DNA of 64,000 nucleotides, from NCBI GenBank assembly GCA_964016885.1, contig OZ024749.1, forward strand, positions 23,250,001-23,314,000, read 5' to 3'. A program made the position numbers and the translations under genes. Numbering within the stretch: position 1 is the stretch's first letter; each line of letters starts with the position of its first letter. Below are positions 19,877 through 43,680 of this stretch, in pieces. The stretch is from Eledone cirrhosa (lineage: Eukaryota). The notes below the pieces were generated by a model. The model had not been told where the DNA came from. It saw only the letters and a program-made list of their open reading frames with translations, and did not search any database.

Positions 19877-20442
19877 ATAAATAAACGCAGCCATAGTCTC
19901 TCGCTATTCCCTGTCTGTAATGTGCTCAAAGGAAAGAGAATCCCGAGCTCTTTATAATACAATATGTTGAAAAGATAACACACTAGAGAGAGATAGCGCG
20001 CCATCAATCAAACAGGGAAAAACCACCAGTGTATGGAATATATAGCCCATGGTAGGCAGAGAAGACACACAATAATTAAAAGCATAAATTCAAGTGTAAA
20101 TATATACCTCGATAACTATCTATCACACACTTTCAAATCCAAAAAGATCTATTTCGCCAAAAAGAGTTGTTGACAGAAATGAATAGCCCATGGTTCATCA
20201 GCGTGTGTAAGGCTATACATTTCAGACAACTCTAAGGGAATCTAAAGCGACCGTCCAGCCACACGTGGGAGAGAGAATTCACAGCGTGTCTAGGGCAATA
20301 ACCAGTGGTCTCTGAGGGACGAACTGCTAGAAAGGGCAGCCCAAACCACTCAGCGAAGTGTGCTCAACCAAACAGAGAGAGGAAAGACTGTTATAAGGAG
20401 CCAAATATCCTAATAAATTAACGGAGCCATAGACTCTCGCTA
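19877..20442 (-). mobile_element. About 536-bp unit bounded by a 30-bp direct repeat, containing a decayed hammerhead (PLE pseudo-LTR or retrozyme-like)
   Basis: 19877-19906 versus 20413-20442 match at 27/30 positions. Minus-strand hammerhead-like fold at 20121-20210. Confidence 0.5.
20121..20210 (-). ncRNA. Degenerate type I hammerhead ribozyme
   Basis: Minus strand reads TTACACACG-CTGATGA-ACCA...TGGC-GAAA-TAGATCT..GGATTTG-AA-AGTGTGTGA. Stems I and III pair, but U16.1 is lost. Confidence 0.5.
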
Positions 20443-20444
20443 AT

Positions 20445-20541
20445 TGGTACGATAGCGTACCAAAATACAGGTACCCTTGAAATATATATAATAAAATAAA
20501 TATGGTTTTATAAAGATAGTTTCCATTTATTAATATTATTG
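20445..20541 (+). mobile_element. Terminal fragment of the same pseudo-LTR family as the 43257-43571 palindrome (3' half of hammerhead plus tail)
   Basis: CCCTTGAAATATATATAATAAAATAAATATGGTTTTATAAAGATAGTTTCCATTTATTAATAT aligns with 43505-43568. Ends at (AT)n. Confidence 0.75.
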
Positions 20542-21162
20542 ATATATATATATGTATATATACATATGTATACACACACACACACATATATATATATATA
20601 TATATATATATAGGGATATATATATATATAGGGATATATATATATATATATATATATATATATATATATTTATAGGGATATATATATATATATATATATA
20701 TATATATATATATACATATATATATATATATGTATGTATATATAACACGTGCACACATATGCAACTCACTGCGTATATATATGTGAATATATACATCTAC
20801 CTTATACACCTATACAAGTTGCATTGGTAAAAACAACATGCCTGCTTTTTACATTAAACATTTACTATCTACAACACAAGTCTTGTAGGTTTAGAAGAGA
20901 ACTCGAGTGCTTTTTTTTCAACTCGTATTTTGTCAGAACTATGTATCTGTGTGAATAATGTACGAGAATATATGACACATTTAATAATTATCTGTTAGGA
21001 AATTTTTCTCGAATCTCTACTTGATTAGAGAGAAAAAATTGCCTTTAGCCTTCATATATTTTTTCAGTTTCTACATCAATTTAAGTTTCTTTTACTGTAA
21101 TATTTAGCAGTAATATTTGTGTTTAGCAGTAATATTTGTCCAACATCACAGGAGTATATGTT

Positions 21163-21221
21163 TATATCCCTGAAGAAATCCTTTAAGTAATTACAAAGTT
21201 ATTGAAAGAAAAAAGGATGTA
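21163..21221 (+). ncRNA. Decayed minimal hammerhead ribozyme relic
   Basis: TATATCC-CTGAAGA-AATCCTTT..AAAGTTATT-GAAA-GAAAAAA-GGATGTA. Stems I and II and both core boxes present. Stem III and cleavage triplet destroyed. Confidence 0.5.
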
Positions 21222-21261
21222 TGTTTCTTAGAAATAATAGCCAATCATCTATATCTATGAT

Positions 21262-21458
21262 AAGGACGGGTGGTTTGGCAGTATCGCTAGAGCGTCAGAC
21301 ACCATGCTTTACAGCATAAAGTTATGGCCCTTTGTGTTCTGAGTTCAAAACCGCCGAGGTTAACTTTGCCTTTCATCCTTACGAGGTCGTTAAAATATAG
21401 TACCAGTGATGCACTGGAGGTAATCACTGGCCTTGTGCCAAAAGTAGAAACTATATTA
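21262..21458 (+). mobile_element. tRNA-headed SINE family B (Meta-domain-like)
   Basis: A box TGGCAGTATCG, B box GAGTTCAAAAC, central TTGCCTTTCATCCTTACGAGGTCGTTAAAAT..GTACCAG, tail GGCCTTGTGCCAAAAGTAGAAAC. Seven copies in the window. Confidence 0.88.
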
Positions 21459-21587
21459 TCTATCATAAATCCTAAGAAATCCGAAAACGGAAGATATTCA
21501 GAAAATATTACTCATTACGACTGCTCAAATCCTACCAAATTATTATTTTATCTAATACATAACATGTTAATTAATATACATTTATAA

Positions 21588-22390
21588 TGGCACGTGGAAT
21601 AATGGTTAGAGTGGTGGGTTCACAATCCTTAATTTGTCAGTTTGATTCTAGGACCAGGCCTAGAGCTAATTGTATCCTCGATGAAGACATTTATTCCACC
21701 TTGATCCAGTTTAGTCAGCGGTAGAAAAGAGTTGAGACGTCACTGGTGCCAAGCTGTATCGGCTTTTGCCTTTCTCTTGGACAACGTTATATATAGTGTA
21801 TATATTGTATACATATATATAGGATATAAATATTGTATAGAGTGCATATATGAGTTACAATGTATCTTGTGTCAAACTGTATCAGCCTTCCCTTGGACAA
21901 CATCATATATAGTGTGTGTATAGTGTATATAGAGGTTCGATTGATGTTCGTCAAATCGGACCGAGGAAGCAATGTTTCCGTTGGTCTTTCAGTCGCAACT
22001 CCAGGTAGAAGAAGCATCGTGAAATAAAGTGTCTTATCAAGGACATAACGCATCGTCCGGTCCAGGAATCGAACTCACAACCTCACGATTGCGAATCCAA
22101 TTCTATAACCACTCAGCCACGTGCCTTCACTCTCTAACCACTCAGACACACGCTTTCATAATGTGTATATATAGGATATACATAATGTATATGGTGTACA
22201 GAGTGTATATATGAGATACAATGTAACTTGAACCTTGCTGTATCAACCTTGCCTTTCCATTGGACAACATCGGTGGCGCAGCGAGGGGAGACAGATATGT
22301 ATGGGTGACTTTTACTCTTCCCCAAAGCCTTTGGCCAGGTTTGTGTCTCGGAGAGGAAATATCTAGGTGTAAATTCCATGATCATTGGTC
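21588..22390 (+). mobile_element. Older long-form CORE-like SINE with internal triplication and a nested family A copy
   Basis: tRNA-like head GGCACGTGGAATAATGGTTAGAG...GTTTGATTC. Motif CTGTATC..CCTT..TTGGACAAC recurs three times (about 21755, 21878, 22238). Confidence 0.6.
21936..22130 (-). mobile_element. SINE family A copy
   Basis: Reverse complement of 19641-19858 over nearly its full length. Confidence 0.88.
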
Positions 22391-22559
22391 TCCAAAAATT
22401 ATCTGTTAGTGACAAAAACAGAAAAAAAGAACACAAAGTGAAAAAAAATTTAACTAGGGTAGGATTGAGGGAAGAGAACTCTTGACAATGATTCGGTTGG
22501 TATATATCTCAGCTACGTCTTACAGTGGATATTGTAATGATAATGGTGTAGTAGAGAGA

Positions 22560-41362: not shown

Positions 41363-41964
41363 GTATACAACATTGAATTGTCGACAATAAATTATGATTT
41401 TGCTGTCAACACAAATTTCTTCTTTCGTTGTCTAAGATGAATTATGTCCCTACATAGTTAATAACAATTTCTCCGTTGGGAAATTTTCACACTTTATAAA
41501 ATATCTATATGATAAATTCCTAATTCTTAAACACTTTCAAACGTTAATTCCTCTATCAATAGTAAATTTATGTTGAATAGTAAAATATAATTCATTATAA
41601 ACGAGTAACAATTATAAAATCTATTGTAAATGTTTCAATTTTTATAAACTTGTTATGAATATAATTAAATAAAACTTTTTATATAGAACATTTTATTTTC
41701 AATTCTTCAGAAGTGATAATTGATACGTAGGTAACAGTAGTTTCATCATTTTTAGGAAGTTATATAGATATATAAATCTTCTGTAATATTTAATATTCTA
41801 TATATGAAAACGTGATTTCAGATGTAATTCGTTTATTCTTAAGTAAATATATGTAAATATATGTTAAACTAAATTTTAAATTAAAAGAAAATATTTATTA
41901 TTATTTCTTTACTTTTGAAATGACGGATTACTTCTTAAATAGATATATAATTTTTTTTTTTTCT

Positions 41965-42064
41965 AATTTAGGCACAAGGCCAGCAATTATCCAGTGCATT
42001 ACTGGTACTTTATTTTATCGACCACGTAAGGATGAAAGGCAAAGTCAACCTCGGCGGGATTTGA
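41965..42064 (-). mobile_element. SINE family B, 5'-truncated
   Basis: Near-identical to 40997-41095. Confidence 0.85.
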
Positions 42065-42629
42065 ATATAAATTGATATATAATAAAATATACGTTATCTC
42101 AAAATGTGTCACACTATTATTTTCAATTATTCTCTTGTACAATTTAATAAACTTAATTTTATTCCTTACATTGTTGATAAACACAATTTAATTAAACTCA
42201 TATAAGATATGTATGTAACCAGAAAATATCATCATATAAATTTATGAATATACGATTTCATAATCATGTTATATTTAATTTAATTATTACATCTAATCTT
42301 TTTCCTTACTTAAATCTTTCACATTCCTGCAATTTGTAATTAAATGCATTTACAACACTGGTAATAGAGATTGTACATATTTACATCTTGAGATCTGGAT
42401 ATGTTTTTCATGAATAAGTTTTCAAAGGAAGATTACCATTCACTGAATGTTTTCAACTACTTTTGTCTTTTGTCTTTTTCTTCTTCACCTTTTGTCTCAT
42501 TATATTCATATCTATCTATCTATCTATCTATCTATCTATCTATCTATCTATTTATCTATCTATCTATTTATTATAAGAAGAGATGGAAGTTTAGGCAAAG
42601 AATTGTTGCTTTCCCACTTAACGGGATCT

Positions 42630-43180
42630 TATATATATATATGTGTGTGTTTATATATATATATGCATATATACATGTATATATATATGTTTATATATAT
42701 GTATATATATATATATATATATATATATATATGTACATATACGTATATATGTATATATATGTATATATATATGTATATATATATATGTATATATACGTAT
42801 ATATGTATATGTATATATATATGTGTGTGTGTGTGTGTGTGTGTGTATATATATATATGTGTATATATATGTGTGTATATATATACATATGTATATATAT
42901 ATGTATATATATATGTATATATATATGAATATATGTATATATATATATATGTACATATGTATATATATATGTATATATGTATATGTATATGTATGTACAT
43001 ATGTATATATATATGTATATATGTATATGTATATGTATGTATGTATATATATATATATATATATATATATATATATATATATATATATATATATGTGTGT
43101 GTGTGTGTGTGTATATATATATGTATATATATGTATATATATATGTATATACACATACACACACACATATATATATATAA
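42630..43180. repeat. (AT)n/(GT)n/(ATGT)n compound microsatellite
   Basis: Direct inspection. Similar tracts at 20540-20740, 30335-30530, 30931-31310, 31840-32050 and 32160-32500. Confidence 0.95.
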
Positions 43181-43298
43181 TATTATAAAATTATCTAGCA
43201 GTACAAGTGAAGTCATTCTTTTCCTTTTTTTCAAATATATTTTATATATGTATATACAATATATTAATAAATGGATACTATATTTATAAAACGATAAT

Positions 43299-43363
43299 TA
43301 TGTTATTATATATATTTCAAGGGCAACCAAGGCAGTCTTGGTGCGCTTTCATCAGATAAAATA
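43299..43363 (-). ncRNA. Minimal type I hammerhead ribozyme
   Basis: TATTTTAT-CTGATGA-AAGCGCACCAA-GACTGCC-TTGGTTGCCCTT-GAAA-TATATA-TA-ATAACATA. Confidence 0.82.
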
Positions 43364-43464
43364 CAAGATTTGTTTTATAAATATTGACATAACCGTGGAA
43401 AAACAACCTTGACCGTCAAGGTTGTTTTTCCACGGTTATGTCAATATGTATGAAACAAATCTTG

Positions 43465-43529
43465 TACTTTATCTGATGAAAGCGCACCAACACTGCCTTG
43501 GTTGCCCTTGAAATATATATAATAACATA
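43465..43529 (+). ncRNA. Minimal type I hammerhead ribozyme
   Basis: TACTTTAT-CTGATGA-AAGCGCACCAA..TTGGTTGCCCTT-GAAA-TATATA-TA-ATAACATA. Palindromic ATATATAT stem III, AUA triplet. Confidence 0.8.
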
Positions 43530-43680
43530 ATTATCGTTTTATAAATATAGTTTCCATTTGTTAATATATTGAATATTTACTCCAGTAATTGTTGAGTGCT
43601 TTATATCAGTTATAAACTTTTAAGCTTGTTGAAATCCCAACAAATTAAATATAACTTCTTGATCGATATATATATATATA

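Follow-up and report, generated by a model that had tools for sequence, protein, structure and literature searches.

Analysis of a 64,000-nucleotide stretch of the Eledone cirrhosa genome (assembly GCA_964016885.1, contig OZ024749.1, positions 23,250,001 to 23,314,000, forward strand; hereafter the window) revealed six insertions of Penelope-like elements (PLEs) in which two element ends lie head to head as an inverted pair, one end flush with an (AT)n repeat and the other lengthened by a family-specific tail. All six inverted structures reported in an initial annotation of this sequence were recovered by masked self-BLAST of the window. They are palindromes A (family F6) and B (F2), the short elements D (F17) and E (F10), a Neptune-type element (F4) and a Hydra-clade element (F14). 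The features of the insertion unit of endonuclease-bearing (EN+) PLEs, namely an inverted 5′-truncated copy at the 5′ end and a tail on a single end, were present in 6/6. The same arrangement recurred across the genome, where 217 of 227 callable pairs outside the window carried one tail. The reading that we favour, and consider rather probable, is twin priming, in which cDNA synthesis is primed on each of the two target strands, from two fixed start sites on the RNA, and the two cDNAs are joined end to end. Two of the six structures had been described as pure palindromes, but a tail lengthens one side of each, by about 50 bp in A and 85 bp in B. The elements had also been taken to form a graded series; they represent six different families, and the series is therefore one of sizes and not of descent.

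For the genome-wide counts, 120 evenly spaced 10-kb regions (1.2 Mb) of the 3.0-Gb assembly were sampled. Families were defined from the asymmetric foldbacks of this random sample, which gave 35 clusters; F12, F24, F25, F30 and F34, with low-complexity tails, were dropped, as were ten duplicate loci. To avoid the circularity of applying these families to the set that defined them, held-out loci were counted as well; they came from six family searches, only one of whose queries included a tail. Exactly one arm was tailed in 95/100 callable random pairs and in 122/127 held-out pairs, against about 50% expected from the frequencies of the two ends; 2 random and 10 held-out pairs were ambiguous and set aside. 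In the window the figure was 6/6. When 30 family-D loci were picked by tail sequence alone, a tailed partner was found in none, the 22 "partners" called by the script in this check including about ten matches to the element's internal hairpin. Tails spanned 33-131 bp across about 30 families.

The paired ends were also biased in orientation and alike in allele. In the random sample 102 pairs were head-to-head, 13 tail-to-tail and 24 direct, whereas a control with short interspersed elements (SINEs) gave 17, 19 and 45, with no head-to-head bias. Arms of the same locus agreed at 871 of 902 diagnostic subfamily sites, arms of different loci at 55%. These observations bear on the idea that each pair arose from separate insertions that happened to enter one (AT)n array, or from later rearrangement or assembly error. 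Such arrays are dense, nested insertions occur (the few tail/tail and no-tail/no-tail pairs), and palindromes are known to rearrange. Yet independent insertions would give no one-tail rule, head-to-head bias or allele sharing, and AT repeat would separate the arms; the arms moreover differ by 1-7% in sequence and in possession of the tail, unlike read-through artefacts of assembly. We regard this explanation as highly improbable and already largely refuted.

Either arm can be the longer one. Among 223 one-tailed pairs, 85 were symmetric and 84 were asymmetric with a resolved longer arm, which was the tail-less arm in 52 and the tailed arm in 32; in the other 54, also asymmetric, no longer arm could be assigned. 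Near-equal pairs were divided in the same way (tail-less arm longer in 22, tailed arm in 18), and the open reading frame (ORF) remnants of the window lie on the tail-less arm in the Hydra-clade element and on the tailed arm in the Neptune-type element. Simple fold-back of one tailed cDNA is thereby excluded. The initial annotation had pictured opposed ends of unequal length. That picture is too simple: arms no more than 20 nucleotides (nt) apart in length made up 77/145 pairs, with a mean of 50 and a maximum of 62 after shuffling, and the excess persisted without F6 and F1 (33/93, mean 19, maximum 28).

Arm starts were clustered at family-specific points. They fell within 14 nt in 67/98 F1 and 35/50 F7 cases, beside TTAGT-like and TCAGAT-like words; peaks in F6, F14, F4, F10 and F17 partly reflect how the queries were selected, and unselected ends show them more weakly. 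Hammerhead cleavage was rejected as a source of the arm starts, the peaks being upstream of the CUGA core and off the cleavage site. The place of the tail is seen in a full-length Hydra copy (locus L311), which has the order pseudo-long terminal repeat (pLTR) with hammerhead, tail, leader and 830-codon frame. In this copy the tail is the leader directly after the 5′ pLTR. Tails of F2, F7, F17, F22, F26, F28 and F29 start with an ACTC...GAGT inverted repeat near the tail-less boundary, and this hairpin is a putative protein-binding site; the strict pattern TACTC...GAGT was present in 7/34 tail representatives and is not used as evidence.

Under twin priming, the PLE enzyme would nick both strands of the (TA)n target, and two cDNAs would be primed at two fixed sites on the RNA, the pLTR end and the far end of the tail. 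PLE reverse transcriptases (RTs) are not known to have RNase H, so that one RNA could be copied twice. With the 5′ pLTR in use, both start sites would be just 50-200 nt from the 5′ end of the transcript and both RTs would run off the same RNA end. Short, near-equal palindromes would result because both start sites are then close to the transcript start, and long arms would arise where a pLTR further downstream is used. The cDNA ends would be joined by end-joining with little or no homology, and some events may include an extra DNA-templated copying step. Two primings, one per target strand and one per RNA site, fit all of the counts and match the Poseidon element PAc of Anolis. This keeps part of the model proposed in the initial annotation: at (AT)n the PLE ends are indeed joined head to head, and priming on both target strands agrees with the data. 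The two ends are not equivalent and use two fixed sites.

Junctions between arms allow a further comparison. At 54 callable junctions, of which one is counted twice owing to a tandem duplicate in L228, there were 21 with extra bases, 6 blunt, 10 with a 1-nt overlap, 5 with a 2-nt overlap and 12 with an overlap of at least 3 nt. A doubtful but possible alternative is that two primings, one with a tailed and one with a tail-less start, are followed by fold-back, in which one cDNA snaps back and copies most of the second arm, and the rest of that arm is made on the short second cDNA. This would account for near-equal arms up to 3.4 kb, allele sharing and the fact that either arm can be primary, for the tail-only inverted pieces at 28822 and 29145 in the window, and for turns at internal hairpins. 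The 27/54 junctions that are blunt or have extra bases, with the 10 more of 1-nt overlap, suit self-priming poorly unless untemplated bases were added, and in 2/20 family-A pairs the arms disagree at a minimum of two diagnostic sites, which lie in the inner portion of the arm.

Relevant here is L308 (G000:C4:184892500-184900500), a 6.8-kb one-tailed Hydra palindrome with arms 99.6% alike and equal within 13 nt. It carries a rearranged inversion junction in both arms that is found nowhere else in the assembly, which two primings with fold-back would also explain. L308 points to an added DNA copying step; it could have come about by fold-back during an event with two primings, by template switching at a later point, or through loss of the source locus.

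Several observations weigh against twin priming in its plain form. At L308 one arm probably served as template for the other, or else the source locus is gone. Private variants common to both arms number 25, against 178 on a single arm. Overlaps of at least 2 nt occur at 17/54 junctions, and family A turns mostly at its internal hairpin. Equal arms and allele sharing also fit fold-back, later deletion across the palindrome centre, or conversion between arms, and a longer arm could not be assigned in 54/138 asymmetric pairs. The layout with the tail after the pLTR is known from a single full-length copy of one family, the initiator-like character of the arm starts is suggested by motif likeness alone, and for PAc the in vitro data in the accessible text show no difference in start site between strands (PMC11167929), so that the coupling of strand and start site is not reproduced in that system.

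A palindromic intermediate, formed by self-priming on an antisense template or by fold-back of a single cDNA and trimmed of one tail by the endonuclease at integration, follows the readings of Arkhipova et al. 2013 and Craig et al. 2021. Inverted junctions of rotifer PLEs have palindromes (PMC3846280), resolution by the endonuclease has been proposed as the source of the tail (PMC8557442), most families resemble the target in having an AT-rich tail-less boundary, and random trimming of either arm would also yield one tail and let either arm be longer. It requires a free double-stranded intermediate, though, and a tail-primed cDNA that folds back would always make the tailed arm the longer one, contrary to 52/84 pairs; the accessible PAc data, in addition, put the tail between two RT start sites (PMC11167929). 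We therefore consider this route unlikely.

The role of the target itself was less clear. Self-complementarity of (AT)n had been proposed to drive the inversion. That (AT)n is the target was borne out, and both start sites end in AT-like bases; its causal role is unsupported, as unpaired ends also abut simple repeats (78/92, against 94/99 for paired ends; Fisher P=0.03). For tail ends the figures were 92/102 paired and 47/60 unpaired (P=0.06). Both comparisons are confounded by age and by family discovery, which is biased to AT flanks. Symmetry of (AT)n as the cause is not established because rotifer PLEs have the same shape at ordinary target duplications (PMC3846280, accessible text) and PAc cuts and extends both strands of a target that is not a repeat (PMC11167929).

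Beside the element ends, the first repeat was AT in 595 cases, non-AT in 46 and absent in 66. The non-AT unit was specific to family and end, with the majority unit present in 29/30 for groups of at least three (permuted mean 18, maximum 25). Across the genome, F17 and F6 showed (CT)n or (AC)n runs that separate the end of the element from (AT)n and are likewise characteristic of the family and of the end. At D tail ends, G or C stood at the fourth base in 498 loci (nearly all ACAC among those listed) and ATAT in 51; at D tail-less ends, (CT)n was present in 7/30, including the window copy at 28349, and is absent from the element's own continuation. The (CT)n is likely due to slippage at RT initiation. 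The (AC)n may instead come from an (AC)n tract in a parent not seen here, and later slippage in DNA is a rival explanation. We tentatively suggest, as an idea with the odds against it, that a PLE dimer builds both insertion ends on a single transcript in a coupled reaction. One subunit would start from the pLTR end and the other from the tail end, both running to the RNA 5′ end and each stuttering on the first two template bases like telomerase. The (CT)n and (AC)n runs characteristic of each family would then be written by PLEs, which might also lengthen (AT)n and would have left about 250,000 hairpins that amount to about 2% of the genome.

The coding parents of the elements were examined next to their ends. 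In the 34965-37500 element, RT and GIY-YIG matches were weak and the frames are broken. Sister copies of F4 have a C-terminal EN with a CX4CxxC linker (CDRPNCGIC) and a CCHH motif (CSGC...H...H), both decayed in the window copy. A CX2-5CxxC linker with a CCHH motif is also found in Nematis and cannot separate it from Neptune; the label Neptune, which we take over from the initial annotation, is a provisional one that agrees with the motifs of that clade. The 37580-39798 element had been labelled Naiad, a name that had to be given up: EN is C-terminal and RT precedes it in L308 and L311, and the pLTR has a CTGAAGA...GAAA hammerhead, though Naiads are without a canonical one. The label Nematis was rejected for this element as well. 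The linker is of the CxCX5C type (CNCRNKANC in L308 and L311, CNCINKANC in the window copy), and L311 has HSDKTGN (DKT), RRVRWRA (RWK-like), CRLC (CxxC) and CNH (CxH). By these motifs, as given in the accessible text of Craig et al. 2021 (PMC8557442), the element and the parent of B are assigned to the Hydra clade; a Pfam search did not recognise the Hydra-clade protein.

That the short elements have PLE parents held for two of the four. Palindrome B has a Hydra-type parent in L317, and longer copies of element E (L312, L313, L316) carry an ORF with RT and C-terminal GIY-YIG. No linked ORF or coding parent was found in the 60 ends of palindrome A examined, nor by a further search for a parent of A, nor in the 77 ends of element D examined. 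A 767-codon frame in L307 was set aside, being mostly (AT)n read-through. One-sided tails, varied centres and PLE parents led us to reject a reading of the short elements as miniature inverted-repeat transposable elements (MITEs). Among the PLE foldbacks, L145, L162, L214, L237 and L307 hold a symmetric, tail-less, TA-flanked inverted-repeat family that is probably a MITE.

Six near-intact hammerheads had been reported in the window. Six minimal sites do pass a relaxed descriptor (34744+, 34633-, 39512+, 37765-, 43473+ and 43355-), but they represent just three motifs, each doubled by the foldback, and only 43473+ and 43355- pass the strict descriptor. All six are sequence-predicted ribozymes of minimal type I, with CUGANGA and GAAA cores, helices I and II and a palindromic helix III; the motifs of A and of the F14 element have a mismatch at the base of helix II. 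The relaxed descriptor matched 117 times in the 1.2 Mb sampled, against 0, 0 and 1 in three shuffles, so these motifs are not due to chance. An Rfam scan of the window found no hammerhead, and only repeat-driven microRNA (miRNA) matches below threshold. The hammerhead-like cores of D, where the 5′ core is degenerate, and E, with TTGATGG...GAAA, are altered, and the alterations are common to sister copies; the variant TTGATGG core is kept across copies of F10 and F31. In family F4 no canonical hammerhead was found. Predicted RNA folds of the short window elements were nearly all paired, as for any palindrome. A reading as non-LTR retrozymes was rejected because the hammerheads are not in tandem arrays; none of the six elements has tandem copies, and the neighbouring 615-bp array is without the core motif.

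In the Hydra family F14, a SINE stood at the start of the hammerhead core in 8/39 arms examined (window 39315-39517; L307, L098, L103, L107, L108, L113 and L114). In five of the eight the same target duplication was visible and the SINE 5′ ends differed; these look like repeated independent insertions into one site.

Across the 120 regions, 102 head-to-head pairs were found by the family-based rule, or 0.85 per 10 kb and about one pair per 12 kb, which extrapolates to about 250,000 pairs genome-wide. Paired arms occupied 23,626 of the 1.2 million sampled bases. A de novo rule gave 102 (AT)n-bounded foldbacks in the same regions and 4 in the window stretch; 29/120 regions hold at least two per 10 kb by that rule. 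The stretch had been described as holding a dense cluster of hammerhead motifs. With 6 pairs in 25 kb (resampling P about 0.03, uncorrected for how the window was chosen) and six hammerheads (P about 0.08), its density is roughly threefold the mean, the window having been selected for richness, and it is only modestly rich. The window is an ordinary sample of the genome-wide pattern.

The coordinates of the features are listed in the table. Self-BLAST delimited palindrome A as 34480-34895 with arms 97% alike and palindrome B as 43252-43576 (95%). The centre of A is a short internal hairpin common to most well-matching copies, and another copy of its family end, 92-95% alike, lies at about 63904-63995. 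In elements D and E the tail-less arm is the longer one.

Table. PLE insertions, associated hammerhead motifs and neighbouring features of the window
Feature	Position	Strand	Details
Two PLE-type ends facing outward	19877-20543		F31 tailed end (-, boundary 19962); F2 tail-less end (+, boundary 20543) with hammerhead 3′ half
Element D (F17)	28023-28358		Tail 28023-28099 on left arm; arms 28100-28170/28288-28358, 96% identity; (CT)n stutter at tail-less right end
Element E (F10)	28432-28762		Arms 28432-28506/28650-28724, 97%; right-arm tail to 28762; tail-less left arm with variant core
Seventh foldback	28822-29037	+	Tail-less F18 end after inverted tail-only piece (read from sequence); missing from the initial annotation
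Eighth foldback	29145-29290	-	Tail-less F27 end after inverted tail-only piece (read from sequence)
Palindrome A (F6)	34485-34940		Two arms of about 203 bp; tail 34891-34940 at right
Hammerhead of A, minimal type I	34738-34779	+	CTGAAGA core, palindromic helix III; mirror copy about 34598-34639 (-)
Neptune-type PLE (F4), 5′-truncated	34965-37500	+	Inverted tail-less arm 34965-35077; tailed arm 35078-37469; tail 37470-37500; self-BLAST arms 34965-35077/37356-37469, 93%; broken RT and GIY-YIG frames about 35080-36558 on long tailed arm
Hydra-clade PLE (F14)	37580-39798	-	Long tail-less arm 37580-38943 (-); shorter tailed arm 38944-39672 (+); tail 39673-39798; self-BLAST arms 37580-38142/38944-39672, 94-96%, right arm split by SINE at about 39327-39505; endonuclease remnant 38290-38886 on tail-less minus-strand arm
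SINE	39327-39505	+	Inserted in hammerhead start of F14 tailed arm; 12-bp target duplication
Hammerhead of F14 element	39503-39612	+	CTGAAGA core, long helix II, palindromic helix III; mirror about 37638-37774 (-)
Palindrome B (F2)	43252-43662		Arms of about 162 bp; tail 43578-43662 at right
Hammerhead of B, minimal type I	43469-43525	+	CTGATGA core; mirror copy about 43302-43359 (-)

Other repeats were seen in the window and the sample. A long minisatellite with a CAA-rich unit of 35-38 bp lies at about 1900-18900. At 44199-59935 about 25 units of 615 bp, 99.9% alike, follow one another in tandem from a 300-bp (AT)n onward; this array has no hammerhead core, and sequence related to it was found in L036 and L240. 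Directly after this array, at 60175-63636 on the minus strand, is an unbroken frame of 1153 codons that encodes AP endonuclease, RT and zf-RVT domains, presumably an L1/Tx1-like non-LTR element. L217 and L192 hold palindromic arrays of an approximately 300-bp unit in (AT)n, with arms 100% identical.

The shape of these insertions, the tail, the (TA)n target and the twin hammerheads on opposite strands are already in print. What was a loose statement, a tail often at one end, becomes a set of testable rules: a single tail per pair, either arm longer, the same source for both arms, and arms that often end together. Annotators who meet a short palindrome with hammerheads in (TA)n should enter it as a PLE stump; MITE, miRNA hairpin and new ribozyme element would be the wrong labels. 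The paired arms represent a large pool of possible double-stranded RNA. A literature search that was short of most subscription papers found no one-tail count, twin-priming model or stutter for PLEs.

In the accessible text of Craig et al. 2021 (PMC8557442), the insertion unit of EN+ PLEs is an inverted 5′-truncated copy, often with a tail at one end, at a (TA)n target, and the making of tandem and inverted PLE structures is stated as an open task. The tails there are 30-40 bp, compared with 33-131 bp here, and the one-tail rule, arm symmetry and arm-start peaks are counted here, at about one pair per 12 kb. The Hydra clade of that paper is like the elements here in having RT followed by GIY-YIG, RWR for RWK, DKT, CxCX5C, CxxC, CxH, a (TA)n target and a hammerhead; F14 differs in its clear 5′ pLTR with tail (L311) and a helix II of about 100 nt.

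For PAc, both strands are cut and extended in vitro, two internal RT start sites bracket the tail, and a dimer is predicted (Frangieh et al. 2024, PMC11167929, accessible text). An AT-rich target and a tail after the pLTR are common to PAc and to the present elements, but the genomic pairs here use one site each, and the second-strand and joining steps of PAc were not reconstituted. The Penelope elements of Adineta vaga (Arkhipova et al. 2013, PMC3846280, as far as accessible) likewise have head-to-head inverted pLTRs, junction palindromes, an optional one-sided tail and initiator-like pLTR words; theirs are found with ordinary target duplications and were read as self-priming, whereas here the tail-less arm is often the longer one. 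De novo PLE insertions are very short, with a median of 128 bp in the accessible text of PMC9977147, in line with the short arms here.

Type I minimal motifs with a palindromic helix III are shared with the minimal PLE hammerheads (Cervera and de la Pena 2014, PMC4209133) and with non-LTR retrozymes (bioRxiv 10.64898/2026.07.22.740005), and the accessible parts of this literature already note dual hammerheads on opposite strands 100-700 bp apart. The window motifs differ in being non-tandem, and opposite-strand twins cannot make a cleaving dimer in one transcript. In LINE-1 twin priming, both target ends prime on one RNA and an inversion results. The two LINE-1 pieces are consecutive parts of the RNA, whereas the arms here cover overlapping parts and begin at two fixed sites separated by 33-131 nt.

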